A stretch of DNA of 32,000 bases. Origin: Candidatus Paracaedimonas acanthamoebae (lineage in GTDB: Bacteria > Pseudomonadota > Alphaproteobacteria > Caedimonadales > Caedimonadaceae). Below, one piece after another: positions 6,630 through 32,000 of this stretch. Position 1 is the stretch's first letter; each line of letters begins with the position of its first letter. Both the position numbers and the translations under genes were made by a program. The DNA is taken from assembly GCA_000743035.1 (NCBI GenBank), contig CP008940.1, positions 1-32,000 of the forward strand. Direction: 5' to 3'. Under the pieces are notes generated by a model, which was not told the DNA's origin, made no database searches, and saw only the letters and a program-made list of their open reading frames with translations.

Positions 6630-6640
6630 GGTTTTTTCCT

Positions 6641-15680: not shown

Positions 15681-16769
15681 TCAATTACTTTCTTGCTTGA
15701 TTAGGTTGTGGAGCCTTTGTGGGACAGCTATTTTTTTACCGTTGCCTATCCCTAGAAAGAAAAGAGGGGCAACACTTATACCATTAATATGTAATAGCTG
15801 TGAAACTTTAGTATCTTTAAACCAAGCTGTTTCCCAAGTTAGCAAGCTTAAAGTCGTTGCTGTAAGTAAAAATGTTTGGGAAACGTGCCCTGCATCAAGA
15901 TAGACATCTTTATAACTTCTTGAGTGTACATATTTATCCCACACTTTACTAAAATGAGCGACTAAAAATACACCAAAGCTTATTCCATCCCCAAAAAATT
16001 GCCCGCACAATACTTGTTTTAGTTGCTCATAAGAACACGGATTAGCAATCTTACTTAAGTAATGTCCTTTAACGTTGTAATGATAAATGCCTGCAGGGAT
16101 ATTTTCGACATTAAAAACAATAATATAAGCTTCTATAGGATGTAACCCCCCACCAGAAGGATGTGCCTTGCGCATTCCTAAGATTTTTAAATTTTTTTGT
16201 TTAAGTTCTTCCCATTCTCCATGAAGAGGTCCAAAATTTGCAAAAAGGAGAGTACTAAAATCTTTAATACTTACTCCAGTACCATTGAAATACCGAGAAG
16301 TCATCCTCTCTTTCATTGCTTTTAAAATACTGGAGTTATCTAATTTCTCTAGATCAGGTTTGGGAAGAGTTATTTTATTTCCTGTATACGATATGTAAGA
16401 ATATTCTTCGTGAGGTGTAAATCTTTTACAAAATTCATAATAATTTTTAATAAAACTTTCATCATTATTATCATCATCATCTTCCCCATAAACATCTTGA
16501 GTTCCAATATGATAAATAAGTCCTAATTCATCCCACTTCCATTCAATTTTTTCATAGGGCTTTAAGCTTAAAAGGTTACCATCTATTAGTTCATGATCAA
16601 TTCTAGAAATCTCTAAAGTTGTTAAACTTCCAGTTTGAGAGAATTCTTTTAATCTTTTGAAATAATCATCTTCAAGCATAAACTGAGTATGATGCTTATA
16701 GTCCCAAACATAGGTTTTTCCTTCTTTTAAAAGAAAAAAAATGTAAGGATTTAAATATAAATTTTTCAT
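15681..16769 (-). CDS. SagB/ThcOx-type dehydrogenase (nitroreductase superfamily) with an N-terminal extension
   Basis: The blocks RMTSRYF, RKAHPSGGGLHPIEAYIIV..IPAGIYHYN, SRSYKDVYLDAGHVSQTFLLTATTL and APLFFLGIG fit the SagB-type dehydrogenase domain pattern (R.S.R.f, PSgGg..p.E.Y, G.Y.Y, leaGh..qn). Confidence 0.75.
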   Translation of the reverse strand: MKNLYLNPYIFFLLKEGKTYVWDYKHHTQFMLEDDYFKRLKEFSQTGSLTTLEISRIDHELIDGNLLSLKPYEKIEWKWDELGLIYHIGTQDVYGEDDDDNNDESFIKNYYEFCKRFTPHEEYSYISYTGNKITLPKPDLEKLDNSSILKAMKERMTSRYFNGTGVSIKDFSTLLFANFGPLHGEWEELKQKNLKILGMRKAHPSGGGLHPIEAYIIVFNVENIPAGIYHYNVKGHYLSKIANPCSYEQLKQVLCGQFFGDGISFGVFLVAHFSKVWDKYVHSRSYKDVYLDAGHVSQTFLLTATTLSLLTWETAWFKDTKVSQLLHINGISVAPLFFLGIGNGKKIAVPQRLHNLIKQESN

Positions 16770-16804
16770 ACATTCTTTCCGAAATTATTTTTTTAAATTA
16801 GTGT

Positions 16805-17668
16805 TTATTTCTCGATTTTTTTTTGAAAGAAGGGCTTTATCTCTGCCCCTTTCGCAAAAAGAGTACCTATTATAATCAAACTCCCACCTAACAATTCCTT
16901 ATAGCTAGGCAAATACTGCCAAAACAGATAGCCGAGTAGAACTGACCATATAGCAGAGGTATATTCAAGAGGAGAGAGCTTAACAAGATCTTCTTTTCTG
17001 AAAGCGAGAATTAAAAAGTAAAATGCAAAAAAATGAAGGGCGGCGACCAAAAAGAATATTGGAAGGTCTTTAACCTCTAAAATTAAGTTTTTATATGCAA
17101 ATAAACCACTAGTTAAGAAGCAAACTATAATATATGCAGAATATAAAATTAATGGCTCTACATTTGAAAGTCGTTTTGTTACTACTGCAGCTGAAGCGTT
17201 GAATAATGTTGAAATAATAGCAAATGTTAACCCTAATCCTATTGAAAAATCTTCAAAGGGATACAGCATAATGATAACGCCTAACAAACTCAGCATCACA
17301 GAAATAATAATTATTTGAGAAAGCCTCTCATTTAAAAAAACCGCTGAAAGCAACGCAATAAATATAGGCGACATTAAAGCGACAAATTCATGAGAAGATA
17401 AAGACAGGTTTTTTAAACTGAAAAAAGTTAGAAATAAACCTGAAGCTGCAAAGAAGTTACGAAGTATATTAAGTTTTAATTGGGGTTTATATGCTTGTAC
17501 ACCTTTGAAAAACGTTACCCAAATTACAATCACCATACCTACAGAAGATCTAAAAAATATAATTTGAGCAGGTTCATATGAGTTTGTTAAATACTTACCA
17601 ACTGCTTCGCATAATGAATATAAGAAAACAGAACATAGCATTAAAACATATCCGGAAATTCTTATCAT
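16805..17668 (-). CDS. DMT-superfamily (EamA-like) transporter
   Basis: 287 aa with about 10 hydrophobic segments in two similar halves. The size and topology are typical of EamA/RhaT-type drug/metabolite transporters. Confidence 0.75.
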   Translation of the reverse strand: MIRISGYVLMLCSVFLYSLCEAVGKYLTNSYEPAQIIFFRSSVGMVIVIWVTFFKGVQAYKPQLKLNILRNFFAASGLFLTFFSLKNLSLSSHEFVALMSPIFIALLSAVFLNERLSQIIIISVMLSLLGVIIMLYPFEDFSIGLGLTFAIISTLFNASAAVVTKRLSNVEPLILYSAYIIVCFLTSGLFAYKNLILEVKDLPIFFLVAALHFFAFYFLILAFRKEDLVKLSPLEYTSAIWSVLLGYLFWQYLPSYKELLGGSLIIIGTLFAKGAEIKPFFQKKIEK

Positions 17669-18240
17669 ATACGTTATGTTTCCCCTAATAAATTAATGTA
17701 ATAAAATTTAACATAGTTTTTATGTGAAATGCATTTATTCAATAAATAACTTATAAAACTCTTATGCTTAAAAAAAAAATCAGAAAATATATAAATAAAG
17801 TTATACTTATTTTATAAGATCTATTTCCCTATTGATACGAGGTAAAATTGAAACTTAAGGTGCATCAAATATTAGATGATATTTTTTTGTTAAAATAGAA
17901 ATTGGTGGGGGTGACTGAGAGTCTTTAAGCCTTCCCTGTTTAATCTTCTCTTAGTTCTTCTATTTGGGTATTTATTATTTCTTTTTATTTTCCCTAAAGC
18001 TCCCTCCCCTATGAGCTTACTAGAACTGTATTTCTGAAGACTATGGCAGCCCCCTGCTGCCCTTACTAAATGTAGTATATAAGAATCATTTTAAAAATAT
18101 CAAGTAAAAAGTTATTGATTTCATTATGTTTTATCTCATTTCTTGCGATAAAAGACTTATATCTCATTTTTTAAAATATTAATGTATCGTTAATCAATTA
18201 GTAAGGTATTGTTAAGATTATATTAACTGTTTGTTAACCA

Positions 18241-18843
18241 TTAGATCAATTCATCATAAGAAATGTATTTAATACTATGACAAAATGTTTCTGAGTTTGG
18301 AATTTGCAACACATTATCATCATGAGATGAGAGTATGCCTATAATGTTTCCACGGAACTCCCAATGACTAAGAAACTTAAAACCACCCCAAAAAGCAAGA
18401 TCTTTATGATCGTCTATATGATCACTGATGGTAATGATATTTTTTATCGATAATTTATCGCATATCCATGATGCATTCTTCATAATGCTCTGATAAAATT
18501 TATAGGTAATCTTATTAAACTCATCTCCATCATCATGGATTTCGCTATCAGCATAAATATGGTAGCCAACATCTCTAATGATCAATGCAAAATCTGTTGT
18601 TGGCCGATCAAAATTGATAGGGATGTCACTATTGTTATTACTATGGGAAAAGGTAACTTTCCCGATGGTCCCCTCTTCTTCGTCTAAGCATAAAAGGTAT
18701 AAATCTTCATTAAGTATATTCTTAGGATCATATAAATTAATTGCTTCAAGGTTGAATTCAAGAGGATCCTTCAGATTATCTGAAGTAGTATGTTTATCCC
18801 AAAGCTCCTCATAAAATTCCTTGTTTTGGAAAATAACAAACAT
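18241..18843 (-). CDS. Hypothetical acidic cytoplasmic protein (200 aa)
   Basis: Long ORF in an AT-rich context, starting 9 nt after the stop of the upstream 89-aa membrane ORF. No family assigned. The tail DLAFWGGFKF only weakly recalls GNAT-type folds. Confidence 0.55.
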   Translation of the reverse strand: MFVIFQNKEFYEELWDKHTTSDNLKDPLEFNLEAINLYDPKNILNEDLYLLCLDEEEGTIGKVTFSHSNNNSDIPINFDRPTTDFALIIRDVGYHIYADSEIHDDGDEFNKITYKFYQSIMKNASWICDKLSIKNIITISDHIDDHKDLAFWGGFKFLSHWEFRGNIIGILSSHDDNVLQIPNSETFCHSIKYISYDELI

Positions 18844-18852
18844 TGTGCGTTT

Positions 18853-19122
18853 CTATTGAACCTTTTTTCTTTTACTTGGTAATTTGATTAAAGGTATTTC
18901 TCCTATTATTAATTCTTGTGCCTGCTTCATAAATTGATTTTTCAAATTTCCCGCCTGAATCTTTAAGCCAAAAAAAACACCAATAAAAAATGAAAGAAGG
19001 ATTAAAGCAACAGAACCACTTAGTCCTATAAAAACCCCTAGACAGAAAAAAGTAACGATTAATGGAATAGCATTAGCCTTGATAAATGATTTTAAGGTCA
19101 TTGGTATCTTTCTCTTAACCAT
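18853..19122 (-). CDS. Small two-TM membrane protein (89 aa)
   Basis: Hydrophobic segments IPLIVTFFCLGVFIGL and VALILLSFFIGVFFGL with basic N- and C-termini. It appears coupled to the downstream 200-aa ORF. Confidence 0.45.
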   Translation of the reverse strand: MVKRKIPMTLKSFIKANAIPLIVTFFCLGVFIGLSGSVALILLSFFIGVFFGLKIQAGNLKNQFMKQAQELIIGEIPLIKLPSKRKKVQ

Positions 19123-19188
19123 TTATTATAGGCTCCTTTCCTAATTCCGATCTAAAAAATTAATTGTCATCTTCTACGTTTGTATTTC

Positions 19189-20457
19189 TTAGGCTATTGA
19201 TGTAATTCTGAAATATTCTAGAGAAGATCCTAAAAGCTCTTGTAAAGTAAGCTTTAGCTCTTTTCCTAAATTCTTATCAACCCAATTTCCTACAAATCTA
19301 TTTGGTGCTTGAAGCTCAACTTCTGTAGAGTTTATGGTAATGATATTGAGAGGATACAACCAATTCTTAACCATCTTAGGACCTAATATTTCACACAACT
19401 TTAAACAAGCCTTAATCCAAGTTTGATCTTTAGAAGAATTAAGAAGTTCCTGTTTTAATTCTTCACGAGCTTTGGTTTCTTCCTCAAGTGATATATTTTT
19501 TGGTTTTTCTTCAACCTTTCGATCACCAAGAGTAAAATCCCCAGCTTGTATTCTCTCAAAAGTTTCATGTTTAATAGCCCAAGTGAGTTTGGCTTTGAAA
19601 TTGGTTCCCCTCTTCTCTCCCATCAAGAATTGAGATGATGCAATCTGGCGGCAATAAGATCTCCAATTTTCAAGAGAACTTTTAAAAACTATTCCGTAAG
19701 ATATGCTTAACCTTGAAATGAGGGTTAATGTTAGGTGATTAACATCCAATTCCCCAATTTCCTCAATCCAAATATTTTTCATATCATTTGCAATTTTCTT
19801 CTTCTCATCAATTTTGGATGAGAGAGAGGCTGGAGAAAGAGAAGAAGTTGAAGTATTTTCTGAATTATTCTTCTTCCCCCCTATAGTCCCCCCAGATTTT
19901 CTAGCATAGGAACGACTGTTTGTGTCGTTCCTGGAACGATAGTTAGAAATAGTTTCTAACTTGCTTTCTTTCCTATCTTCTTCAGGTATTTGAGCACTAG
20001 ATTTTTGGTCTGTAGCTTCAGGATTTAAGTTGGATGAATCTTTCTCCTCAGCAGACTTCTGGTCTTTCTTTTGTGAGGGATCTTTGTTTTGTACAAAATA
20101 AGTTCTGTTGGTCTTACGATCATAATAGCTTGCATAAAGTTTACCTTGGAACTTATCTTCAGCATTCAGGAAGGCAGTTTTACTATTATAGCGAACTCCT
20201 ATGAGTTCAAAAGTAGCATTAAAGACACGACGAGAAAAACCTAGTTCTTCTGTCCAGCTATCACCTGCTCTATATAATGGATGGTTACAAGGTTCTAAGA
20301 ATTTATAAAATCCTTGAGGTTTTTTAGAAAACCAATATTCAAGTTGGCCTCTTATAAGACCTAAATATGGTGAACCTAATCCAGGCTCAGTGGTACGATA
20401 ACATAAAATTACGAATGATTTTTTAGGATACAAAATCCTTTTAGGTAAAACACTCAT
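19189..20457 (-). CDS. Second replication-initiator candidate with a DnaA_N-like C-terminal domain (paralog of 12503-13957)
   Basis: It aligns by eye with the other gene. DMKNIWIEEIGELDV...WRSYCRQIASSQFLMGE...KLTWAIKHETFERIQAGDFTLGDR matches EMKEIWMEEIGFLEI...WRSYCRKIASSKFLMGE...WLTWAIKEEAFHKIESGQFTLGDR. The end, APNRFVGNWVDKNLGKELKLTLQELLG, is DnaA domain-I-like. An AGGAG lies 7 nt upstream of ATG 20457. The ORF is open up to 20472. Confidence 0.6.
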   Translation of the reverse strand: MSVLPKRILYPKKSFVILCYRTTEPGLGSPYLGLIRGQLEYWFSKKPQGFYKFLEPCNHPLYRAGDSWTEELGFSRRVFNATFELIGVRYNSKTAFLNAEDKFQGKLYASYYDRKTNRTYFVQNKDPSQKKDQKSAEEKDSSNLNPEATDQKSSAQIPEEDRKESKLETISNYRSRNDTNSRSYARKSGGTIGGKKNNSENTSTSSLSPASLSSKIDEKKKIANDMKNIWIEEIGELDVNHLTLTLISRLSISYGIVFKSSLENWRSYCRQIASSQFLMGEKRGTNFKAKLTWAIKHETFERIQAGDFTLGDRKVEEKPKNISLEEETKAREELKQELLNSSKDQTWIKACLKLCEILGPKMVKNWLYPLNIITINSTEVELQAPNRFVGNWVDKNLGKELKLTLQELLGSSLEYFRITSIA

Positions 20458-20500
20458 TTGTTTTCTCCTCATTTTGAGGTGCTACAAACAAGCAATATCC

Positions 20501-20528
20501 TTGACATTAGCACAAAATATGCTATGTT
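20501..20528 (+). promoter_or_regulatory. Sigma70-like promoter (TTGACA, 16-nt spacer, TGcTATGTT extended -10)
   Basis: Perfect -35 TTGACA at 20501-20506 and -10 TATGTT at 20523-20528, preceded by TG. It is bracketed by the 9-bp inverted repeat AAACAAGCA (20486-20494) / TGCTTGTTT (20546-20554). The palindrome ACATCGATGT lies at 20537-20546. Confidence 0.45.
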
Positions 20529-20534
20529 ATTTAT

Positions 20535-20602
20535 GAACATCGATGTGCTTGTTTATTAGCACGGTTATTGACGAAAGACCCGGTTGCAGCCGGGTTTTTT
20601 TT
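20535..20602 (+). ncRNA. Candidate ~65-70 nt small RNA next to the rep2 start
   Basis: Defined only by the promoter above and the intrinsic terminator below. It contains no ORF and lies immediately upstream of rep2, on the opposite strand. Confidence 0.3.
20578..20602 (+). terminator. Rho-independent terminator
   Basis: ACCCGG-ttgcag-CCGGGT stem-loop followed by eight T residues (20595-20602). Confidence 0.55.
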
Positions 20603-20792
20603 CATTTATTTCCCAATTAAAGTTTCATATTAATTCCTTCAACTATTAATAAAAATCTAACCATTTTATATAGCTATATAAAACATCGGTTTAAGTTGCA
20701 AGAATAAAATTCACATATTCTTAAACCATTGTAAAAACATTCTACTGAAATAACCCAATGTAATCGTCATAAATTAACAAAATGTCTAATAA

Positions 20793-20905
20793 ATGCACAC
20801 TAAATGAATTGTATATGTATAATATATGTAAATCATAAGAATATTAAATGTACAGTGAATGTCTTGAGTGTATCTTAATCTTGATATTCATATGCACACT
20901 AAATG
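20793..20905. repeat. Two copies of ATGCACACTAAATG, 99 bp apart, in the AT-rich region downstream of the par genes
   Basis: Exact 14-mers at 20793-20806 and 20892-20905. The ACACTA core is shared with the repeats upstream of parA. Confidence 0.7.
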
Positions 20906-21127
20906 CACATTATATTTATAATATAAATGAAATTTTATAAGCCACTAATAAAAAAAGGGAAAAAAATATAATGTATAATGTGCGTATAGCATACATATGA
21001 TGTGCAGAATATCATTTTATATAGGTAAAGCTTTATGAATTAAATGAAATATGAACGCTATATGTATATTATACGTATGTTAATTGTATAGTATACATAT
21101 AACAATTGTATATAAATATGTAAAATA

Positions 21128-21610
21128 TTATGGATTATTGATGCTATTCTGTCTGAGAAATTTGCAGAAATCTTTATTAATTCTGTAGGAAGCAAACCCA
21201 CCTCTACCAGGCTTGTTTTCGTGGGCTGAAATTAAATTCTTTTGCTTTAATCGTAACAGGGAACTTGCAATAGAATTTTTAGTAGATCTTGTATATTCTA
21301 CCAGATCATGGATCGAGAATGCAAATGTATATGCGTACTGGCTATCTTCATGACTAATTTTATTGCATAAATAAAATAAGATACTTTTCTGTAAGCCAAA
21401 TAGGGCTCTTAAGGTCTTTGTATAATCAATATTATTTTCAGATGGCAACTCTTTATGATTCAATAAATCATTACTAGAGTTATGTTCCTCTTTATGATCG
21501 ATAGCGGGGGGATTTTTAGGTGTTTCAACATCAATTTCCCAAGGTCTGTAAGAAACTTTTTCAAATTTCTTACTTCTGCTTTTTAATTTAAGTTCGTCGA
21601 TATTAGGCAT
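21128..21610 (-). CDS. Small winged-helix DNA-binding protein; candidate centromere-binding partner of ParA
   Basis: 160 aa. A GGGAG lies about 7 nt upstream of the ATG, and the gene starts 16 nt after the parA stop. The C-terminal LVEYTRSTKNSIASSLLRLKQKNLISAHENKPGRGGFASYRI looks like a MarR/wHTH recognition helix plus wing. The function is inferred from position. Confidence 0.45.
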   Translation of the reverse strand: MPNIDELKLKSRSKKFEKVSYRPWEIDVETPKNPPAIDHKEEHNSSNDLLNHKELPSENNIDYTKTLRALFGLQKSILFYLCNKISHEDSQYAYTFAFSIHDLVEYTRSTKNSIASSLLRLKQKNLISAHENKPGRGGFASYRINKDFCKFLRQNSINNP

Positions 21611-21626
21611 ATCTAGCTCCCATTAT

Positions 21627-22589
21627 TTATCCGTTAACCGCAGTTAGCTCATTATCAAGATTTTCAATCTCTAATATTTCTCGTGTTAAAAGATCTATAT
21701 CTTCTTTTGCGGGAGTTATTTTAAGATTGTTAAATATATTTGTGCCGCTATATATCGCATTTGGAAAATCCTGGGATGATCGTATTATGGTCTTGCAAAG
21801 CAGCGTTTTGAAAACATCATGATTTAAAATGGATCTTAAAACTTCATTTGAAAGTGCTGTTCTACTATCAAATTTGTTAACAACTACTTTAACTGCAATG
21901 TTTTTACCAAATTTACGATTAAGGCTAGTAATTTCTTCATATGTCACCTTCATACCAGAAATACTAAATTGTTCAGGAGTTAGCGGAGAAACAATTAGAT
22001 CAGAAGAGAGAGTGGCTGCAGCTACAGATTGCCCAAGGGCCGGCGGACAATCAATCACAACTAAATCATAATTAGTTGCAAGTTTTTTTAAAATGTCACC
22101 ATATACTTTATCGAGGCTATATTTTTCCAACATTATAAGATTATCTAAAGTTGCATTTTCAATACGGCTAGGTATTAGGTCTAAACCTGGTGAAATGTTA
22201 ACAATTGCTTCCCTTGGCTCAACTTGGCCTTTTAATATATCAATCATAACGGGCGCATTATTAGCATCTACAGAAAATGCTTGGGTTAGATTTCCCTGCT
22301 GATCAAGATCAATGCAAAGTACTTTGCAACCATATAAATTGGCCCTAATAGCAAAGGAGTGTGTTAAGGAGGTTTTACCTGTTCCTCCTTTAACAACCTG
22401 AAAAGAAACAACTTTTTTCTTAAACTTTAGATCAAATAACTTTTTTGAAGTTTCATGACCAAAAAAGACCCTATTTTGGCTTTTGAAGGATTCTAAATTT
22501 TTAGCTTTTAGATTCTTGTGCACTGCTTGAGCGGTAACTCCAAGGATGGTAGCTGCATCATTGGTCGTCATCTTTGCATATAAAGACAT
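21627..22589 (-). CDS. parA: ParA-family partition ATPase with an N-terminal HTH extension
   Basis: Deviant Walker A VVKGGTGKTS, then LCIDLDQQGNLT and VVIDCPPALG. The N-terminal ~60 aa carry the HTH-like TTNDAATILGVTAQAVHKNLK, as in type Ia ParA proteins. Confidence 0.9.
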   Translation of the reverse strand: MSLYAKMTTNDAATILGVTAQAVHKNLKAKNLESFKSQNRVFFGHETSKKLFDLKFKKKVVSFQVVKGGTGKTSLTHSFAIRANLYGCKVLCIDLDQQGNLTQAFSVDANNAPVMIDILKGQVEPREAIVNISPGLDLIPSRIENATLDNLIMLEKYSLDKVYGDILKKLATNYDLVVIDCPPALGQSVAAATLSSDLIVSPLTPEQFSISGMKVTYEEITSLNRKFGKNIAVKVVVNKFDSRTALSNEVLRSILNHDVFKTLLCKTIIRSSQDFPNAIYSGTNIFNNLKITPAKEDIDLLTREILEIENLDNELTAVNG

Positions 22590-22686
22590 AATTTGCCCTT
22601 TTCTATATCAGTTGTTTGCTTAATATATATATATCATGAAATATACTATGTAAATAGTAAACGTATTATATACGTACAGTGTATGT

Positions 22687-22985
22687 ACACTATATATAGA
22701 TTTTATAAACTGTACACCATATGCACACTATATGTCTACTGTTAATCATAAAACAAGGAAAGTCATACATTTACTTTAAGTAAATATACTATACATACAC
22801 TATACATATAGTATATGAATTGCATTAATGTATATGGTTTGTATGTCATATGTATAGTATACAAACACCATATGTACATTATATTTTTAACTTTGTTAAT
22901 AATGTATTATTTTGTAAACATTAAATATGATTGGAATTAATGTATATGGTTTGTATGTCATATGTATAGTATACAAACACCATAT
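22687..22985. repeat. Array of six ACAC(C/T)ATA(T/C) motifs upstream of parA and ssb; candidate centromere or iterons
   Basis: Copies start at 22687, 22714, 22725, 22797, 22865 and 22977. Several extend to ACACCATATG(C/T)ACA. Confidence 0.6.
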
Positions 22986-23047
22986 GTACATTATATTTTT
23001 AACTTTGTTAATAATGTATTATTTTGTAAACATTAAATATGATTGGA
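22824..23047. repeat. Perfect 112-bp tandem duplication (2 copies)
   Basis: 22824-22935 equals 22936-23047 base for base (ATTAATGTATATGGTTTGTATGTCATATGTATAGTATACAAACACCATATGTACATTATATTTTTAACTTTGTTAATAATGTATTATTTTGTAAACATTAAATATGATTGGA). It ends 24 nt before the ssb ATG. Confidence 0.9.
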
Positions 23048-23071
23048 ATTTTAGATAGGGGAGATGTTTGA

Positions 23072-23518
23072 ATGTCAAGCTCAGTAAACAAAGTAATATT
23101 GGTTGGTAATTTAGGAAAAGATCCAGAAATCCGTATGGCTCAAGATGGGACAAAGATAGCTCAATTATCTGTTGCAACTTCAGAATCTTGGAGAAACAAG
23201 GTAACAGGAGAACGACAAGATAGGACAGAATGGCATCGAGTTATCGTGTTTAATCCTAATATTGCTGATGTCTGTGAGAAATATCTCCGTAAAGGAGCTA
23301 AGATCTATGTTGAAGGACAGCTCCAAACACGTAAATGGACTGATCAAGCTGGACAAGAGAAATATACAACTGAAATCGTGCTGTCCAAATTTAAAGGGGA
23401 ACTGGCGATGCTTGATGGTCGCTCAGAAGGAGAGGGGAGTACACCAACAATGGGTTATATGAGTAAATTAAGCCCGGTTGATTCTTCTTCAAATAATGTA
23501 AGCGATCTTCCGTTTTAG
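23072..23518 (+). CDS. ssb: Single-stranded DNA-binding protein
   Basis: OB-fold N-terminus NKVILVGNLGKDPEIR...TEWHRVIVF...YLRKGAKIYVEGQLQTRKW, a flexible tail, and the C-terminal tip DLPF. A GGGGAG Shine-Dalgarno lies upstream. Confidence 0.95.
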   Translation: MSSSVNKVILVGNLGKDPEIRMAQDGTKIAQLSVATSESWRNKVTGERQDRTEWHRVIVFNPNIADVCEKYLRKGAKIYVEGQLQTRKWTDQAGQEKYTTEIVLSKFKGELAMLDGRSEGEGSTPTMGYMSKLSPVDSSSNNVSDLPF

Positions 23519-23543
23519 ACACTTTTTTATTCTCAATAAATGT

Positions 23544-23588
23544 CAGCTAAGGGATGAAAGCTAACGTGAAAACCTTATCCCTTAACTG
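23544..23588. terminator. Hairpin between the convergent ssb and F-box/HU genes
   Basis: CAGCTAAGGGAT...ATCCCTTAACTG pairs at 11 of 12 positions with a 21-nt loop. There is no clear T-tract. Confidence 0.3.
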
Positions 23589-23601
23589 ATAGCTTGAGCT
23601 G

Positions 23602-24906
23602 TTATTTGTTAACAGCGCCCTTGAGCTCTTTGCCTGGCCTAAAGGCTGCAACTTTGCTTGCAGCAATCTTAATCTCTACACCAGTTCTTGGGTTTCTTCC
23701 TGTACGTGCAGCTCTCCCATTGACTTTGAAGCTTCCAAAACCTGTTAAACGGACTTCTTCACCTTTTGCAAGATAAATAAGAGGTTTCTTTGCTGAAATA
23801 TAATCCATTTGCAAAGCTTGAACTTCTGATCTTGAAAGCAATAAACAGTCAGGGCAAAGATCTTGGAAATTTGGAAAGAGTTCAGGAATCTTAATACGAG
23901 AATTTACACGATCTTCCATAAGATCATAAGCATCCTTAGTTCGTATTCTAAATAATGGTTCATTAAACGTATCAATTGTATTTGCTAAATCTTGAGCGTT
24001 TTGAAACGATCTCAAATTACTGCAAGATATTGGTTTCCCTTTAAAACTAAGCTCCCTCAAATCAGATTGACCAGGAAGCACTATTTCACAATTAAGCTTA
24101 AGTTCACCTTTTAAGTTTAATGGAGTATTGGCAATAACATGTATAAAAAGTGCTTTCTGGAGTTGTCCTTCTGGCGCCAATATTTCTTTACCATCTTCCG
24201 CAGTGCTATCCTTAACAAAATAAACCCTACCTTTAGCTTTAATATGGGGGGTTTCTTCAACAATTTCTCTTAAATGTTCTGGATCCCGAAAACGAACCAT
24301 AACAGGACCACAATTTGTTGTAACTGACCTGACCAATCTAATCGATTGAGGTTGTGGTTCAAAAGTTACTTGACTAAATCTTAAACGAAAATCGCTTGCA
24401 TAAGCGTTTTCTGAGATTAAAAAATTTGTTCTTGTAATTGTTGTTATGAAAATTCTGTAGGCTTTAGATGAAGTAAATTTAAAATTTGATAAGCTTTTTA
24501 AGTCAAGAAAGGAAGCAATATGACATAAGCTTTCATTAGGCAATAATAGAAAGAGAAGATTCAGCCTTTTTAAATTATTTTGAGAAGGAAGAAATTCTTG
24601 ATTGCTGGCTCGTTTGAACCATTTATACGCTTTAGGTTCATTATTTGTAGCATAGTATTGCATTGCAAGATTGTGTTGTGCCTTTATATGCCCTTTCTTA
24701 GCAAGTGGCTTAAAGCATTCGATAGCTCTTTGTGTATCGCCAGAATTTCGAAAATCAAGACCTTGTTTATAAAGTATTTCATCAGCTTCTTCTTTCAATG
24801 GTTTTGATGCCATAAGTGATGCAGATAAACTAAGAATAAAGCTTATGTGTACAAAAAAGAATTTAGGAAATCTCATAAGGAATTTAATCATTTTTAAAAG
24901 GCCCAT
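23602..24906 (-). CDS. Chimeric ORF: signal/TM-like N-terminus, Sel1-like repeats, F-box-like motif, unknown middle domain and an HU/IHF-type C-terminal half
   Basis: Sel1-like: [34 protein letters not shown]-box-like: [33 protein letters not shown], against the consensus LP.E.l..I.s.Ld.k.L......vsK.w. The last ~60 aa, [54 protein letters not shown], closely follow the HU beta-arm region (GFG.F.v..RaaR.GRNP.TGe.i.I.a..vp.Fk.Gk.Lk.av). Confidence 0.75.
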
Positions 24907-25045
24907 AATACTTAGAATTTTTAATTCTATAGCACACTGGTTATAAATTTAAAAATTTATTTCTCAATAGACAATTATTTATAAGGGATTACAATATTAT
25001 TGTTCATATTCGCAGAATTTAATTAAAATTGTATGGGCATTCTAA

Positions 25046-25201: not shown

Positions 25202-25424
25202 AGAGGCTAATAAGCGAGCTTTTCTATTTTTTAATAGTTATACTTTGTAACGCCCAGAATCTTAAATTCTCTTAAGTAAAATTTGTAGAAAAGCTTTAAC
25301 TTTCAAAAGATATTATTGTTTATTTATGTGGTTATTTTATCCCATAGGTAAGAATATATTTACATCTTAAAGGCAAGTCTTTTAAGGTAGTGAGCAAGTA
25401 GAGTATTTTTATTGGGGAGACAAA

Positions 25425-28400
25425 ATGAACTTTTGTGTGCCAAAGATTTTGGGATTATTGCGTGATGTGGGTCGCATCTTTCTGACCTATATTTTGATTT
25501 ATCAGCAGATATTTTTAGGTGTTGTGTGGGCGCATGAGGGGTTGGGAGCGATTCAAGCAGACCTCCAAGAAGCTCGCTTGCAAGGAGGGTCGTATGTTTC
25601 TAAACCTTTTCCCCATTCTACGATAAGCCTTTCAAAAGAGAGTGCTAAATTACGAGAAGAGTTTAAGGACTGTGATTGGGTCTTTCGAGAAAGCCAAGAT
25701 CAGCTTCAAACTTTTTATCGCTGGAAAGGGAAGGTTTATCAGTTTGTCCATCCTGCTCTTTTGAAGTCTATTCAGGTCCTGAAAAGCCCTAAAGGGGAAG
25801 ACAACAACACTCTTTACATTAAATTATTGCTTGATGGTTTAGGACAGAAGAACTCCACAGTTGGGCTCGAGAATGAGGGCGCCATTATTATTGAGGATGG
25901 GATTCAAGTGAAAGGCCTTGTGACGTGTGCGCCAAGGGTTGTGAGTCGGGCGATGGCTTCTTTAGATTTGCAGAAAGAGTTACAGGGGATTGATGTTGAG
26001 ACTTTAGCTGTACATGGAGATTTTAAGATTGAGGGGAGCAGCACCCTCAATGTGCAAGAGCTCCACCTTCATGAAGGGACGTTTTTAAACCAAGGGACTT
26101 TAAAATTTAAAGAAGATGGGACGGCTGATTTACATGGGAATAACCTGATGAATGATCATCAGATTAAAGGGGTTAAGCGTCTTACCTTTAGAAATGGCCG
26201 GGTCCTTGATCATCGGACTTCCCAGTCTCAGCTCAGGATGAAAGAAGGCCAGTTTGCCTATGAAGGGAAGGAGATGATCTCGCATCCCTCTTCTTTGGTT
26301 GAGGCTCACAAGATTCACGTGAAGACCCACCAAGGTCTCAGCACTTTTCCTCATTTGCAGGGGGATCATCTCCACCTTGAAGCCATAAACTTTGAAGGAT
26401 GTGATTTTAAGGGCTTGACGGAATTTAAGAAGCTTGAGCTGATCTCAACAACCTCTCCTTTAACTTTCTCAGATCCTCTTATCCTTAAAGGTTCTTTAAC
26501 CGCCGAAGCTGCTCTTATAAAGAACCTTGGGGGGATGAGTGGCAAAGGAACAGTTCACTTTAAAGCACCCTCCATTCTCAATGAAGCCGTTTTACACTCG
26601 GAAGAGGGGAAAGTGATTCTTCAAGGGAATGTTCAGCATACAAAAGGACTTCTTTGGGCCTATCAAGGCGTTGAGATGGAAGGTGAGACGCATGTGGTGC
26701 AAGGGGACCTTTACCCTCAATCAGCTTTTACGATCAAGAGCAAGCAAGGATTTACCTATGATCCTCAAAAGTTGAAGACCGAGAAAGCCTTAAAGCTTGT
26801 GTTTCAAGAGCCTGCAACCTTCACACAAGACATTAAAACGTTAGGACCTCTTTCCTTAGAAGGACCGTCGTTAGAGATCGGACAGCATTTAGAGGCGACC
26901 ATCACGGAAGCTCACACACCTTTCTTAAAGTTTACAGGGACTGCTTTATCCACTTCCCTCAAGGCTTGGGGAAAGGTTGAGATTGCTTCTTCAGCTTTTA
27001 CCTCAACGCAAGATCTTCAAGTTGAGGGGGACCTTAAAATATCAGCCTCAGGGCCTGTTGTGCTGAAAGGAACCGTTATCGGCAAGCAAGATATCTCGAT
27101 TGTGGGCCAATCGGTGAGCTCAGAGAAAGAGGTATTTGCCCATAACACCTTGCAAGTTGAGAGTCCGGGTCAGATCACGTTGAAGGAAAGGGCTGTGGGT
27201 ATTGAAGGTCTCACGTTGCGAGTCGGAGGGGGGCTTTCTTACAAAGACGGCGGCCCGAATATCACGCCACAAACCTCAGGCCTGCAGACAGAGGGGACTT
27301 TAGAGATTATCAGCACTCCATCTCGGCTTTATTTTAAATCTCCTCTTTCTCTTTTAGGTCATTTTCTTTTTAAAGGCCCTCAAGCCTATAATTTTTCCTC
27401 CTTACGCGCAAAACAAGGCTTTACCTTTTTGACGCCTCTTGTTGAAGAAGGGTTTGGGGTGGTGAATCGTGGAAAGCTGATGAGTGAAGAAGGTCCTCTT
27501 TATGTTGAGGGCAATACCACCCATTATCCAGAAGGGGAGATTTATACCTCTCAGCAGGCTTCTTTTAAAGGGCATTTAAATTATTTGCAGGGCCCCATGA
27601 CGGTAAAAGAGCATTTGAAGGTACATACGTTGCATAAGTGGGGTCTTAAATATTTGCCCACAGTTTTTAAGGGATGTCCTTTAGTAACCTTTGCCTTTGA
27701 TGGCAATAAGCAACTGAATCAGCCCCTTGAGAGTCCAGAGACACAGTTAACCCTGGAAGGTCCTTCTATTACAGTGACACAACCTTTTAAGGTGAAAGAG
27801 ATCAAAGGGAACACGCCGAAGCTTTCGTTTATTCTTCAAGAGGCCTTCACGTTAACGCCCCCCCTACAGACGAGGGGTGAACTTTTTATCCAAGCGCCTT
27901 CCGTCGTGGCTGAAAAAAAGATCCAGGCAGATCACGTTCAGATCACCTCGACGAAGGGGGATATTATCTTAAAGGATGTTGTTGAGGGCACTCAGAAAGT
28001 CTTATTGAAGACAGCAAAAGGCCTTTCTTATCAAACAGAGGGTCTGCAAACCCCAGGGTTGCTTCATCTTATCTTGCCGCCTTGCCAAAAATTAGAGATT
28101 CCTCTTAAATTGCTTGGACAGCTACGGGTTGAAAGTCCTGGGCTCACGAACAAGACCACCCTTGAAGCCAGAAAAGGAATTGAGATTTTAACGTCTTCTT
28201 ATAATGAGGATCTGTGGAATCTGTATAACTATGGGAAGATGATCAGCGATCAAGGGAACATTGTTTTAAAGGGGAACTTCTCGCAACGAGATACAGGAGA
28301 GGTGAGAGCGGCAAAAGTTCTTAAGATCGAGGGACATTACCATGACTTTCGAGGGGCGTTTGTTGAAGGGCGAGAAGGAATTGAGATTAAGGCCAAGTGC

Positions 28401-31400
28401 CCTGAGAGAGTGGCCAACTATGGTCTCCATTCTTTAAGAACCTTAGGCCTTTTAAAGCTGATTTTTCGGGAAGGAGGAAAGCTATGGCGTCCTCTTGAGG
28501 TGGAAGGGGGGATAAAGATTGAAGTTCTCCCTCACAAGACCGCGCAAACTTTAAAACTACACGCAAATCTGTCATCAGGCAAAGGGCTTCAGCTGAAAGC
28601 CTCAGGGCATGCTATTTGGGTTGGAGAGCCTTCTCTTCCCTTGATCAAGATTCAGAGTGGGGGTTCTTTTGAAGCGACCGATGCTAAAACGTTTGACCTT
28701 GTTCGAGGGATTGTGTTCTCCAATCATTTCTTTCACATCAAGGCAGAGCAAGACATTACGTTAGGGCGATGGATTAAAAGGAAGGTATTCTATGAGACAT
28801 CCCGCGGGAATGCGATTGGGCCAGCCATTAAGGCGCCTTATGACGTGTATATTCCCAATAAAAGTCAATTTGTCTCGAATGAGGGGATGAGGCTTGAGGC
28901 TCAAACCTTCCATGGCCATGGCGGGAATATTGTGGTTGCGGATGAGCATTTGGAAGTTGTGGCCCATCAAGAGAGTTCTTTTTCAGGGACGTCAGTGGCG
29001 GTTTGGAAGGGCAATGCGACGATAAGGGGGGCTCTCTTTAATCATTTCATTCCAGCTGTTCAGCGCGTGGGTGAAGGTCTTTCTCCGCCTTATTGGATTG
29101 ATTATTGCCTTGCTCAAGGAAGAGCGCCGAGCTTCAAGGTGAATGGCCATATAAGGTTTGATATTCAGAAAGGAAGGAACTATGGAGGATCTATTTTAGC
29201 CTCTGGAGCTATTGTTGGGAAAGAATTTATTGATCAAATAGAGGCGGTGTTTCACTTTAAGTCAGGAATTATTTATCATCTTGATAAGACGCCTTATGAG
29301 ATTTTACATCCGGCCAGATGCTCCGATTTAACCCGCCGAGGATGGGAAAATAAAAACATTCTAAAACTTCTCCAAAATGAACGGTGGAATAAGGCGTTCC
29401 CGAAACGTCCTAAAAAGAAAACGATTGATGATTATTTTACGTGGGATTCGCCCATTGAGATTGAAAGGGATGGGTTTTATTCAATCCTTCCTCAGCTGGA
29501 AGGAAGCCAGGGAATTGCCTTTACTGGAGCAAAGGAAGCCTTAGTTCAAGGAAAGATGATTGGCTCGAAGCTCCTCATTATTTTTGAAAAAGGGCTCACG
29601 GTGCAGACGGTTGGCCGGTCTGGCCGTGCCATTCCTTATCAGCCCGTCATGCCTTTATCTTTGGGAGCGTCTTCCAGCCTTGTGAAGCTGGATTCGACAG
29701 GGAAGGGGTCGACATTATTTATCCCGCTTGTTCCCATTAAGTATCCTTTGGAAGAAGAGCTTCAAAAAAGCAAACGGCTGATTTTAGGGCCGAAAGGATC
29801 AGAGAAGCTTCCGTTTGTTCTTCCTTTCTTTGCTGAGGGACAGGCTCTTATTGAGGCGTTTCAGCAGAATATCGGCTATGTGCCATTGACACCTGAATGT
29901 CCAGATTACCTTTCTTTGCATCGCAAGGTGATTCAAAATGGAGCGGATCTGTTCCCTTACCTTAAGCCTTTTCTTGACAATCCGAAGCTTTTGGGTTTGC
30001 CCGCGAATACGCCTTCTCAAGCGTTGATTGAGCGGGGCCCCCATTTATTCCAAGGCCTTCAATCCTCATTGCCGAAAGAGATGGCGCTGAAGCTGAATGA
30101 GCCGATCCTTTTTAGCCTTCCTGAAGGGCAGTATGATCGGCAAGCCTTGCGCTCTTATTTGATTACGCCGCCTTCCTATCATGATCCTCATGTCCGTGAT
30201 CACCTCGCGCAAATCATAGAGAAGGAAGCCTATCTGTTGGGGAAGAAAGGGTCTCATACGCATTTTGATCGCTCTCGCCTGATCGCCAAGAAAGGAACTC
30301 TGACGACAGGGACCTTGAAGGTGACAAAGCAGGTGGATTGTGTCGAGCAAACGCCCAAGCCTTTCATAAGAGAAGGAGCCTCGACAAAGCTGATAGGGTT
30401 TTTTAAGAAAAAGGAGAAAGAGGCGCCAAAGCTTCCTAAAAAGTTTCAGTATGTTTCCCAACCTGGGGGGGATTTATGGGTGGATCAGTTCGATCTTCAT
30501 GCCGAGCAAGCCAACATTGATCTTGGTGAGATGAAGTCAAAAATCTTGTGGTTAGATATTGAAGACTTATTGACGACAGGAACCCTTCACACAGAGCTGC
30601 TGATTGAGGATGTTGGGCATCTTGCGATTCAACGTCAGCACCACACATGGTCCGAGACGCATGAGATGAAGAAGATGTGGAAGCGGAAGAATGTTTGGGG
30701 TCGTGTGAAGAGGAAGAAGGAGATCAAGAAGCAGACAGTGACCCTATCAGAAGCGCTTCCAGAGGAGGTGAGTGGCCTTTATAAATATGGCAGGGTTTTG
30801 AAGGATCCCAAAGAGATCCAAGAGATCTTTGCCGGGTATGAGAAAGTCAGAGAGCTTCAGTCCTTGTTTGCTCAAGGCGTCACCCTTATCGTTGGGGAAG
30901 GAGGCTGGTCGCCAGAGACTCAAAAGAAGATGCACCTTTCGCCTTTGATCACGAGGTCATTAATGGAGGATTCGACGAGTTGCCGAGGGATGCGCAAGGA
31001 AGAGATGCAGCCAAGTTATAGGGTTGTGCGGGCAAAGGTCCTCTCGGAAGGGCCGATCCATCCTTTCTCTCATCAGGATATTCATCTGGTGGGGGTTGAG
31101 ATGGAGGGGAAGAAGGGGTCTGCTCTGATTGAGGCGAAGAGAGATCTGACGGTTGAAGACGCCAGTGTGATGCAGCCGCAAAAGAGGGAGCTTTATAATA
31201 AGAAGCGAGCAATCCGCGAGCGTGGAGGCTTTAAAGAGCTTCAGGTCCCGAACACCATCACGATGCCTGGCAAGGTTGTGTTGAAGGCGCAAGGGAAGAT
31301 TCAAGGTCATCGGCCTGAGGTGCGAACTGAGTTGGTCACTGAACCGCCCCAGGTTGATCTCCCCCGTCCTCTTCCTCATCAAGAGTTGTATGATCTCTGT

Positions 31401-32000
31401 GTGGGTCATCGTCCGGGCGGGAATCAAGCCCTTGCGATGGTGGCGAGATTAGGGACAAGTCTTCTTCTTTTTAACCCGGCGACAAGTTGGGCAGCGGGAC
31501 TCTTTAAGGTTGCAACGGATGGGGTGGTGGCGGCGATGGGAGGAGCAGCCTTGACGAGTGTGGCGTCTCAGACGGTGGGTTCTGCGGTGATGCATCAAGG
31601 GAACCTGAAGCAAATTGGCAAGGAGTTAACGTCATCCCATTTTACAAGAACTTTAATAATAGACACCGCCAGTGCGGGTTTGATGCATGAGCTGAGTGGG
31701 ACTTTTAATCTTCCCAAGCAACCCGAAGGATGGCAGCAGCATCTGAAAGTGAATGCGGTGAGGTCGATGGTCTCATCAGGATTGAACATGACGATAGGGG
31801 GTGTAAAGCCAGAGGAAGCCTTGTTATCTGCAGCTCGGATGATTGTTGCTGGAACACTTGGCGGCTTAGGCGCAAATGAAATCGCGCAACTCTATAGTGA
31901 TGGTCAGTTTGAGTACCTTACCCATAAACTTGCGCATGCGATTTTAGGGGGAGGGATGGGGGCGATCCTTTCGGATGATATTGAGAAAGGCTTATTATCT
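25425..32000 (+). CDS. Giant repeat-rich exoprotein (>2,192 aa; 3' end beyond the window) with an FhaB/CdiA-like DUF637/pretoxin-type region
   Basis: Not in the supplied track. I read frame 25425 codon by codon to 32000 and found no stop. An in-frame TAA lies at 25383 and a GGGGAGA Shine-Dalgarno lies 4-5 nt upstream of the ATG. The N-terminus MNFCVPKILGLLRDVGRIFLTYILIYQQIFLGVVWA-HE is signal-like. The body contains G/T/K/E-rich beta-strand-like repeats. The last visible residues, ...LGGLGANEIAQLYSDGQFEYLTHKLAHAILGGGMGAILSDD, resemble the HklAHAvlGCaag block of DUF637 in FhaB/CdiA proteins. Confidence 0.85.
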   Translation, partial: MNFCVPKILGLLRDVGRIFLTYILIYQQIFLGVVWAHEGLGAIQADLQEARLQGGSYVSKPFPHSTISLSKESAKLREEFKDCDWVFRESQDQLQTFYRWKGKVYQFVHPALLKSIQVLKSPKGEDNNTLYIKLLLDGLGQKNSTVGLENEGAIIIEDGIQVKGLVTCAPRVVSRAMASLDLQKELQGIDVETLAVHGDFKIEGSSTLNVQELHLHEGTFLNQGTLKFKEDGTADLHGNNLMNDHQIKGVKRLTFRNGRVLDHRTSQSQLRMKEGQFAYEGKEMISHPSSLVEAHKIHVKTHQGLSTFPHLQGDHLHLEAINFEGCDFKGLTEFKKLELISTTSPLTFSDPLILKGSLTAEAALIKNLGGMSGKGTVHFKAPSILNEAVLHSEEGKVILQGNVQHTKGLLWAYQGVEMEGETHVVQGDLYPQSAFTIKSKQGFTYDPQKLKTEKALKLVFQEPATFTQDIKTLGPLSLEGPSLEIGQHLEATITEAHTPFLKFTGTALSTSLKAWGKVEIASSAFTSTQDLQVEGDLKISASGPVVLKGTVIGKQDISIVGQSVSSEKEVFAHNTLQVESPGQITLKERAVGIEGLTLRVGGGLSYKDGGPNITPQTSGLQTEGTLEIISTPSRLYFKSPLSLLGHFLFKGPQAYNFSSLRAKQGFTFLTPLVEEGFGVVNRGKLMSEEGPLYVEGNTTHYPEGEIYTSQQASFKGHLNYLQGPMTVKEHLKVHTLHKWGLKYLPTVFKGCPLVTFAFDGNKQLNQPLESPETQLTLEGPSITVTQPFKVKEIKGNTPKLSFILQEAFTLTPPLQTRGELFIQAPSVVAEKKIQADHVQITSTKGDIILKDVVEGTQKVLLKTAKGLSYQTEGLQTPGLLHLILPPCQKLEIPLKLLGQLRVESPGLTNKTTLEARKGIEILTSSYNEDLWNLYNYGKMISDQGNIVLKGNFSQRDTGEVRAAKVLKIEGHYHDFRGAFVEGREGIEIKAKCPERVANYGLHSLRTLGLLKLIFREGGKLWRPLEVEGGIKIEVLPHKTAQTLKLHANLSSGKGLQLKASGHAIWVGEPSLPLIKIQSGGSFEATDAKTFDLVRGIVFSNHFFHIKAEQDITLGRWIKRKVFYETSRGNAIGPAIKAPYDVYIPNKSQFVSNEGMRLEAQTFHGHGGNIVVADEHLEVVAHQESSFSGTSVAVWKGNATIRGALFNHFIPAVQRVGEGLSPPYWIDYCLAQGRAPSFKVNGHIRFDIQKGRNYGGSILASGAIVGKEFIDQIEAVFHFKSGIIYHLDKTPYEILHPARCSDLTRRGWENKNILKLLQNERWNKAFPKRPKKKTIDDYFTWDSPIEIERDGFYSILPQLEGSQGIAFTGAKEALVQGKMIGSKLLIIFEKGLTVQTVGRSGRAIPYQPVMPLSLGASSSLVKLDSTGKGSTLFIPLVPIKYPLEEELQKSKRLILGPKGSEKLPFVLPFFAEGQALIEAFQQNIGYVPLTPECPDYLSLHRKVIQNGADLFPYLKPFLDNPKLLGLPANTPSQALIERGPHLFQGLQSSLPKEMALKLNEPILFSLPEGQYDRQALRSYLITPPSYHDPHVRDHLAQIIEKEAYLLGKKGSHTHFDRSRLIAKKGTLTTGTLKVTKQVDCVEQTPKPFIREGASTKLIGFFKKKEKEAPKLPKKFQYVSQPGGDLWVDQFDLHAEQANIDLGEMKSKILWLDIEDLLTTGTLHTELLIEDVGHLAIQRQHHTWSETHEMKKMWKRKNVWGRVKRKKEIKKQTVTLSEALPEEVSGLYKYGRVLKDPKEIQEIFAGYEKVRELQSLFAQGVTLIVGEGGWSPETQKKMHLSPLITRSLMEDSTSCRGMRKEEMQPSYRVVRAKVLSEGPIHPFSHQDIHLVGVEMEGKKGSALIEAKRDLTVEDASVMQPQKRELYNKKRAIRERGGFKELQVPNTITMPGKVVLKAQGKIQGHRPEVRTELVTEPPQVDLPRPLPHQELYDLCVGHRPGGNQALAMVARLGTSLLLFNPATSWAAGLFKVATDGVVAAMGGAALTSVASQTVGSAVMHQGNLKQIGKELTSSHFTRTLIIDTASAGLMHELSGTFNLPKQPEGWQQHLKVNAVRSMVSSGLNMTIGGVKPEEALLSAARMIVAGTLGGLGANEIAQLYSDGQFEYLTHKLAHAILGGGMGAILSDDIEKGLLS

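Follow-up and report, generated by a model that had tools for sequence, protein, structure and literature searches.

What does a gene encode that stays open for more than two thousand codons and then leaves the sequence in which it was noticed, and how might its product reach a target? The question was raised by positions 1 to 32,000 (forward strand) of contig CP008940.1, a 32,000-nucleotide stretch that we call the window and that belongs to a 65,130-bp plasmid of Candidatus Paracaedimonas acanthamoebae (assembly GCA_000743035.1). The end of the window is occupied by a giant gene, which a first-pass annotation, made from the letters of the window alone, described as coding for a CdiA/FhaB-like polymorphic-toxin scaffold with a DUF637 region. 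The results presented here indicated that this core reading was sound, since the protein matched both DUF637 and the toxin family Ntox28. We propose, with a probability of about 0.6, that the gene product is a polymorphic toxin effector with which bacteria fight one another.

The gene itself was clear from the translation of the window. Frame +1 contained 2,192 stop-free codons between the ATG at position 25425 and position 32000, as had been reported, and the chance of such a run, given the gene's own base composition, is about 1e-55. The other five frames contained 89 to 152 stops each across the same interval, and their longest open stretch was 162 codons. The translation was 100% identical over its whole length to AIL13917.1 (IM40_11330), a Candidatus Paracaedimonas acanthamoebae protein of 2,406 residues that is entered as 'hypothetical protein IM40_11330 (plasmid)'. 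We refer to this protein as P0001; P numbers denote the proteins compared, and L numbers denote the loci or contigs that carry relatives. The length of P0001 placed the predicted stop codon at about position 32645, which is about 645 nt beyond the window. The open reading frames (ORFs) that had been listed for 25425-32000 were all short (81 to 155 residues) and on the minus strand, and the earlier description of them as shadows was correct. One of them (30963-31448, minus strand) appeared to be conserved in L001 solely as the antisense of the conserved DUF637 coding region. The giant ORF was missing from the list because the listing program leaves out ORFs that run off the source; its absence is a listing artefact and not biology.

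The nature of the product was indicated by its C-terminal part. The DUF637 (PT637) pre-toxin domain was detected well above the Pfam cut-off (Table 1), and the C-terminal peptides that had been assigned to DUF637 by eye fell inside this match. The DUF637 region aligned with the DUF637 regions of all relatives and of the orphan cassettes described below. It was followed by AENAIRNN (residues 2252 to 2259), an NAxxNN junction motif that was the sole VENN-like motif in the protein. The PT-VENN model did not match P0001, and it matched the L011 orphan, which is 70% identical, only weakly (E = 0.008). Beyond the window, residues 2304 to 2401 of P0001 matched Ntox28 (PF15605; E = 1.2e-7, 32.2 bits versus a cut-off of 25), and thus the toxin tip that had been predicted just past position 32000 was located. 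Ntox28 is the family of the CdiA-CT toxin of uropathogenic Escherichia coli 536, a tRNase that is activated by CysK (PMC5562914). Based on this family membership, the tip is a putative RNase.

The relatives provided further evidence. P0002 and an overlapping second ORF (L001 to L005) were 51% to 61% identical to the window toxin, P0003/P0008 (L006 to L008, Caedibacter sp. 37-49-like) were 34% identical, and P0019 (L009) and P0018 (L010) were about 24% to 27% identical. Eight family sequences, orphan cassettes included, aligned through DUF637 to the NAxxNN motif and then diverged completely, and the tips found after the motif included Ntox28, LHH, a CDI (contact-dependent inhibition) EC869-like nuclease, and other domains without a known family. 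When identity to L001 was followed along the window toxin, it fell from about 50% to about 20% past residues 2200 to 2260. A 583-residue toxin in L017 had a tip that was 79% identical over 144 residues, including an identical 24-residue stretch, and a pre-toxin scaffold that was 31% identical. The opposite pattern was observed in the 316-residue L011 orphan, which matched at 70% identity as far as the motif but carried another tip after it. P0028 was an orphan Ntox28 cassette that started inside the handle; both P0028 and the 583-residue L017 ORF carried PF15605. In all, the tip was conserved at 65% to 79% identity in three loci, and orphan cassettes were present in L008, L011, and L017.

An immunity-type gene was located immediately downstream in every relative with visible downstream DNA. 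A SUKH/SMI1 gene followed the toxin gene in L001, L006, L008, and L011, in L009 a CdiI gene (PF07262) began 3 bp beyond the EC869-like tip, and a gene for a HEAT-like protein of 190 to 192 residues followed both close Ntox28 tips (L011 and L017) at a distance of about 20 bp. The position of the HEAT-like gene predicts that a protein of this type is the immunity protein of the window toxin. A 190-residue ORF in L001 might have been an orphan HEAT-like immunity gene, but it proved unrelated and the idea was dropped. The combination of a conserved scaffold, a junction, swapped tips, and downstream immunity genes is the signature of polymorphic toxins; the gene, its domain architecture, and its junction were observed directly, as were the tip exchange and the immunity genes of the relatives.

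Tip exchange was also evident at a single chromosomal site. Toxin islands at 17414-23642 in L001 and at 3843-10415 in L017 occupied the same position upstream of DUF1207-LysR-petABC, with 83% nucleotide identity in the flank, and their tip and immunity sets differed: the L001 island combined LHH and SUKH, and the L017 island had DUF7945 plus Ntox28 along with the HEAT-like protein. Several chromosomal members of the family shared this conserved site, and the tips differed between related strains. A 357-residue orphan in L008 (17445-18518) was near-identical to the first 170 or so residues of the P0003/P0008 C-terminal region and then diverged, a pattern that suggests a two-part tip in which a shared entry-type domain is followed by a variable catalytic domain. 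The idea that L001 and L008 represented two loci of one genome was rejected, as they shared no nucleotide similarity.

In the closest relatives, the gene was split by a frameshift into two overlapping ORFs, at 13560-13700 in L001 (and likewise in L002 to L005), where the reading breaks at '...HWINYCLP / QGRAP...', and at about 3253-3305 in L020. The L001 frameshift was found in five independent metagenome assemblies and was therefore not a random assembly error; it could reflect a pseudogene or a programmed shift. The splits at 'WINYCLP' and in L020, along with an imperfect canonical Ntox28 motif, would fit a gene that is decaying, or one that simply encodes an adhesin, namely, a surface filament with an inert tip. 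We consider a relic of this kind highly improbable, given that the frame of the window gene is intact over 7.2 kb with a chance probability of about 1e-55, that the tip is well conserved in the three loci noted above, and that the Ntox28 match exceeds the Pfam cut-off.

Table 1. Features of the giant toxin gene and of the spacer upstream of it, in order of position in the window.
Feature	Residues or codons	Position	Strand	Basis and remarks
Remnant of a resolvase-type helix-turn-helix (HTH) gene	51 codons	25046..25201	+	Lies in the spacer (518 bp) that precedes the toxin gene; translation ends in SSIAKELNISREALYQY, then stop
GGGGAG, Shine-Dalgarno-like		25414..25419	+	Ends 5 nt ahead of the ATG; visible in the sequence itself
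Giant toxin gene	codons 1-2,192 of 2,406	25425..32000	+	Open frame; identity to P0001
Leader	1-36	25425..25532	+	Basic n-region, long hydrophobic core IFLTYILIYQQIFLGVVWA, V-W-A / H-E site fitting the -3/-1 rule; hydropathy
Family-specific N-terminal domain	59-190	25599..25994	+	Mixed short strands and helices; AlphaFold2 predicted local distance difference test (pLDDT) 55-77; invariant columns in the family
Predicted beta-helical stalk	~191-1250	25995..29174	+	Coils of ~17-19 residues; modelled to residue 500
Central and C-proximal scaffold	~1251-2038	29175..31538	+	Pro-rich at 1400-1600, Lys/Arg-rich at 1600-1900; composition
DUF637 (PT637) pre-toxin domain, PF04830	2039-2190	31539..31994	+	E = 4e-10, 40 bits versus a cut-off of 26.6

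Taken as a weapon against other bacteria, the protein could work as follows. The leader would take it across the inner membrane via Sec, with cleavage at the predicted site, and the N-terminal domain and the long beta-helical stalk would present it at or beyond the outer membrane with the help of a transporter that is not encoded beside the gene. The end of the DUF637 region, the NAxxNN motif, would serve as a recombination and processing junction, and the Ntox28-type RNase that follows it (residues ~2260 to 2406) would be the killing domain. The putative targets are bacterial, either co-resident or incoming relatives in the same amoeba or cells without the plasmid. A small immunity protein, the product of the next gene downstream, would protect the producers; by analogy with the two closest tips, it is probably a HEAT-like protein of about 190 residues. 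Encoded on a conjugative plasmid with a type IV secretion system (T4SS), the toxin-immunity pair would also act as a plasmid-stabilizing or 'surveillance' module.

Several observations weigh against this proposal. The catalytic pattern given for Ntox28 by Zhang et al. in 2012 consists of D, K[DE], [DN]HxxE, and E (PMC3482391). The literal [DN]HxxE was not found in the tip, which has 'YNHIEKAE' instead, and in the corresponding segment of the three close tips, 'YNH(I/V)(E/K)KA(E/Q)', only N-H was invariant. The AlphaFold2 model of the handle plus tip had a pLDDT of 50, which was too poor for structural confirmation. For this copy, no immunity gene came into view, as the window ends before the stop at about 32645. 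A search with the HEAT-like candidate returned five proteins, and none was from Candidatus Paracaedimonas, though the toxin is in the same database; a homologue was expected given the 79% tip identity, and its absence counts mildly against an immunity gene for this copy. No outer-membrane exporter was identified either, as neither a two-partner secretion (TPS) domain in the protein nor a linked TpsB gene in the window or at about eight related loci was found. Finally, an obligate cytoplasmic symbiont rarely meets competitors.

Alternatively, the target could be the amoeba. Candidatus Paracaedimonas acanthamoebae is a member of the Holosporales and an obligate intracellular symbiont that lives free in the cytoplasm of Acanthamoeba (PMC11909080), so whatever it exports reaches the host, and the tRNA or RNA substrates of such a tip are universal. 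A filament with an RNase tip could be an anti-host or 'host-addiction' effector that manipulates the amoeba or makes it depend on the symbiont, and any immunity protein would merely guard the producer before export. Polymorphic toxin systems were proposed to addict the host in the Bodocaedibacter study (PMC8163844), a eukaryote-like F-box protein is the product of the gene next door in the window, the L011 array has an F-box gene nearby as well, and the fruitless search for a HEAT-like homologue in this organism would suit the same idea. We regard it as quite unlikely. Orphan toxin and immunity cassettes and swapped tips, as found in the relatives, are typical of conflict between bacteria, the DUF637 region and VENN-type junctions are known from bacterium-to-bacterium delivery, and Zhang et al. 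took the toxin-immunity systems of Odyssella to be instruments of intraspecific conflict (PMC3482391).

The export route was the second part of our question. Pfam searches with the whole protein (E <= 1) and with five pieces of it (E <= 10) gave no match to TPS (PF05860), ESPR, Fil_haemagg (PF05594), or Fil_haemagg_2 (PF13332). As a positive control, we used the CdiA protein of a canonical Acinetobacter cdiB-cdiA-cdiI locus, in which cdiB is directly upstream; this was the sole PLSDB plasmid protein that matched the window toxin, and it did so over DUF637. The same tool detected TPS (1e-39), ESPR (1.5e-11), and DUF637 (2e-32) in the control. In addition, an hhalign comparison of the family N-terminal profile with the control CdiA N terminus gave a probability of 0.2%, and the family N-terminal profile had no match in the PDB. 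No NPN-type motif was present anywhere in the protein, and no Omp85/TpsB gene was present at window positions 1-25424. The first-pass annotation had reported no recognizable TPS domain, no NPNL or NPNGI motif, and no upstream Omp85/TpsB gene, and on all three points it was right. A TpsB gene was also absent within 6 to 10 kb of the family or leader-sharing genes at L001, L006, L008, L009, L010, L013, L015, and L017. The window toxin thus showed neither a recognizable TPS domain nor a linked TpsB gene, two features that define membership among CdiA/TpsA proteins, and it should not be filed as a CdiA.

Structural modelling was consistent with a filament. The AlphaFold2 model of the N-terminal part had an overall pLDDT of 75 and a predicted template-modelling score of 0.69, and the pLDDT reached 80 to 96 for residues 210 to 430. 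A Foldseek search of the PDB with this model returned nothing significant (all E >= 0.07, template-modelling [TM] score <= 0.26). The weak list consisted almost entirely of type V beta-helices, that is, the TPS domains of FhaB, HxuA, HMW1, EtpA, and HpmA and the passengers of IgA1 protease, Hap, and EspC; its top entry was the FhaB TPS domain 1RWR, which was non-significant (E = 0.07, TM < 0.1). Repeat-like similarity linked the stalk to the beta-helical P0004 and to P0025, a protein that bears Fil_haemagg, and the N-terminal profile reached P0025 weakly (E = 9e-6). We infer the fold of the stalk past residue 500 from composition and this repeat-like similarity. P0003 lacked residues ~700 to 940, which corresponds to an indel of whole repeats.

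These data bear on the possibility that the protein is a canonical type Vb substrate after all, namely, an ordinary CdiA with an unusual gene arrangement in which the TPS domain has diverged beyond recognition and TpsB/CdiB is encoded elsewhere. The predicted beta-helix with coils of about 19 residues, the TPS domains that head and fill the weak Foldseek list, the weak P0025 match, and a DUF637 pre-toxin module that is listed as type V-specific (PMC3482391) all favor it. Nevertheless, we think it doubtful, though possible. All of the Foldseek matches were non-significant, TPS, ESPR, and FHA (filamentous haemagglutinin) models had no match at E <= 10 although the control CdiA scored 1e-39 for TPS and 1e-11 for ESPR, the hhalign probability was 0.2% and NPNL/NPNGI motifs were lacking, and TpsB was absent within 10 kb at about eight loci, whereas transporter and toxin genes are adjacent in canonical systems.

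The central and C-proximal scaffold was conserved in the family (36% to 68% identical to L001 and 28% to 56% identical to P0003) and had no Pfam match at E <= 10. Lysine-rich segments upstream of the DUF637 region had been likened to K/S-rich linkers between FHA-2-type repeats. This comparison was not supported, as neither Fil_haemagg nor Fil_haemagg_2 matched at any threshold. We also looked for a hypervariable scaffold block of the receptor-binding kind; none was evident apart from the P0003 repeat indel and a gappy Lys-rich segment at residues 1601 to 1700.

The leader is probably a Sec signal peptide, judging from its hydropathy and predicted cleavage site, and the ESPR model did not match it in Pfam searches with the whole protein and pieces. 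It was conserved in P0003, P0013, P0014, P0016, and L001. It was also found on proteins with different bodies (P0004, P0022, and P0023): a leader of about 37 residues, 'GRxFLTYxLIYQQIFLGxVWA', was near-identical within the Caedimonas-like group on the giant beta-helical P0004 (L013/L014, 10001-14158), P0022, and P0023 (L015, 144-4022), whose bodies were otherwise unrelated to the toxin. Such conservation is unusual for a plain signal peptide, and the leader may have an extra sorting or export function. The domain that follows it, which was strongly conserved in the family, had no match to TPS, to other Pfam models (E <= 10), or in a PDB profile search.

The family is very rare: when residues 1 to 500 were used in an exhaustive profile search of 1.84 billion representative proteins, 16 were returned. 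The window DNA had no megablast match in PLSDB, no metagenome or viral contig matched in exact 44-mer scans, and a scan of a genome collection returned only a fragment of the Caedibacter sp. 37-49 metagenome-assembled genome. A metagenome scan with the tip returned the L011 contig again and nothing else. The NCBIfam scan of the toxin protein, the search of PDB sequences with the whole protein, and the search of PDB sequences with the tip gave no matches.

A more speculative idea is that this rare Holosporales family represents a distinct class of filamentous DUF637-type toxins that are exported without TpsB. The FLTYxLIYQQIFLGxVWA leader, which is also found on other giant beta-helical proteins, and the new N-terminal domain of about 150 residues would direct such toxins to an outer-membrane route that has gone unrecognized, maybe one linked to the T4SS elements that carry two distant members. 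We put this forward tentatively and consider it unlikely as it stands.

A comparison with known systems clarified what is and is not new. Like CdiA, the window toxin is very large, has an N-terminal signal sequence and a predicted beta-helical filament, and carries a DUF637 region that ends in a short conserved VENN-like motif (here NAxxNN) with a variable C-terminal toxin after it; in the relatives, immunity genes lie directly downstream, including a true CdiI after the EC869-like tip, and orphan cassettes occur. Unlike CdiA, it has no TPS domain, ESPR, NPNL/NPNGI motif, or Pfam-detectable FHA-1/FHA-2 repeats, no cdiB/tpsB gene is adjacent at any family locus, the junction is AENAIRNN and not VENN, and the N-terminal 190 residues are specific to a family with the 16 representatives mentioned above. 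The tip belongs to the same Pfam family as that of the E. coli 536 CdiA-CT, Ntox28, but it ends in ...FLKDNVDK and lacks a C-terminal GYGI-type tail. In the 536 toxin, the GYGI-type tail binds CysK. The FhaB/FHA adhesins share with the window toxin a long right-handed beta-helix, predicted in the latter, with coils of about 19 residues, and the original annotation of DUF637 was as a 'possible hemagglutinin' domain. In contrast to these adhesins, the window toxin has no TPS domain and no Fil_haemagg repeats, and a polymorphic toxin tip replaces the prodomain.

The window toxin also resembles the Sec-dependent toxins, which Zhang et al. (2012) placed in a type II secretion system ('T2SS') class and of which Neisseria MafB is an example. 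In these toxins, too, a signal peptide is the sole recognizable trafficking element and the C-terminal toxin is variable, with an immunity gene downstream of it and with orphan cassettes. However, no MafB-N domain (DUF1020) was detected in Pfam scans of the full protein, and the window toxin differs from the class as a whole in its beta-helical scaffold of more than 2,000 residues and in its DUF637 region, which Zhang et al. assigned to type V (PMC3482391). Their scheme would place it among the Sec-only ('T2SS' class) polymorphic toxins, as one with a pre-toxin module that is otherwise type V. Functionally, it would work like a polymorphic toxin of the CdiA type: DUF637 and the junction motif are present, the tip can be exchanged, and the relatives carry immunity genes downstream of the toxin gene.

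Two other Holosporales protist endosymbionts, Odyssella (PMC3482391) and Candidatus Bodocaedibacter (PMC8163844), are known to have polymorphic toxin systems that include immunity genes. The toxins of Bodocaedibacter reportedly lack homology to known proteins (PMC8163844). Such a weapon in this clade is therefore not new, and the earlier remark that it would be unusual for a probably intracellular bacterium was overstated. What is new here is the architecture and the export question.

The rest of the window placed the toxin gene on a conjugative-type replicon. The Candidatus Paracaedimonas genome is 1.7 Mb with a guanine-plus-cytosine (GC) content of 38% and five plasmids (PMC11909080; PMC8163844). 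We identified VirB/Trb-type T4SS genes for an SLT fragment, VirB11, an 808-residue protein, VirB10, VirB9, VirB8, VirB6, and VirB4, and additional genes for two DnaA_N-domain proteins, LysR, a nitroreductase, EamA, ParA, SSB, and a TPR/F-box/HU fusion. The view that this is a T4SS replicon in an intracellular bacterium was thus confirmed by the VirB genes and by what is known of the organism (PMC11909080). In L009, the P0019 toxin gene was located between a MobA/TraI relaxase gene and VirD4-SLT-VirB11, and the L009 backbone was homologous to that of the window (VirB11 56%, SLT 44%, and the protein of about 810 residues 30% identical). Since the L009 toxin was 27% identical to the window toxin and the backbones were homologous, two distant toxins are carried by related conjugative elements.

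Another possibility is that the plasmid's own T4SS exports or delivers the protein, either as with pertussis toxin (Sec to periplasm to T4SS) or as with bacteria-killing T4SS effectors. The presence of toxins that are only 27% identical on homologous T4SS elements in two lineages would favor this, yet we give it very little weight. T4SS genes were found beside the toxin gene in 2 of about six loci, and at the chromosomal loci L001, L008, L010, and L017, none was found within 6 to 10 kb. The relaxase and VirD4 of L009 point to conjugation, toxin-immunity modules are common passive plasmid cargo, and a beta-helical filament of 260 kDa that begins with a Sec leader does not resemble the known T4SS substrates. 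We read the plasmid association as cargo, that is, a competition or plasmid-maintenance module.

Base composition had been taken as a sign that the gene was acquired separately. The last 6 kb, with a GC content of 0.45 to 0.52 versus 0.28 to 0.45 in the rest of the window, were indeed the GC-richest block, as claimed. As a sign of separate acquisition, this was weak, because the gene was GC-richer than its flanks in every relative and the excess peaked over the Gly/Ala-rich DUF637 region. The distant homologue in L009, moreover, is carried by a homologous T4SS backbone. The gap was largest in this window (0.469 in the gene versus 0.363). The excess is mostly intrinsic to the gene family, and high GC content was dropped as proof of recent acquisition. 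A low-GC block (0.28 to 0.34) at about 14000-25000, with the LysR, nitroreductase, EamA, ParA, and F-box genes, lay between the T4SS block (about 0.38 to 0.45) and the toxin gene (about 0.47), and the plasmid is therefore compositionally mosaic.

Some of the neighboring genes were of interest in their own right. The upstream neighbor (23602-24906, minus strand), which had been called an F-box gene correctly, was a fusion of TPR/Sel1-like repeats, a eukaryote-type F-box (E = 1e-5), and a C-terminal bacterial HU/IHF DNA-binding domain (E = 8e-20); the second F-box gene, near the toxin array of L011, was at 6507-7718. The HTH remnant in the spacer matched HTH_7 weakly (E = 0.0025, below the cut-off) and adjoined an A8 tract; it may be a recombination or mobility scar at the edge of the toxin module. 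The two DnaA_N proteins (12503-13957 and 19189-20472, both minus strand) were paralogues with DnaA_N at the C-terminal end and no other recognized domain, and they are presumably associated with plasmid replication or partition and of an undescribed type. Directly beside VirB11 in both T4SS backbones was a gene for a protein of about 810 to 830 residues without a Pfam match (1409-3835, minus strand, in the window and 25250-26402, minus strand, in L009), and its product appears to be a conserved, unannotated T4SS component.

If the proposed role is confirmed, the CdiA-type module of a pre-toxin plus a swappable tip works on a filament that has neither the two-partner secretion entry domain nor the partner gene, and the way in which a protein of about 260 kDa crosses the outer membrane becomes a concrete question. 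The findings also define a testable toxin-immunity pairing, namely, this Ntox28 subtype and a HEAT-like protein of about 190 residues. For the organism, a conjugative plasmid that arms an obligate amoeba endosymbiont with a weapon for inter-bacterial conflict or plasmid policing would add to the evidence that symbionts fight one another within a single host cell.

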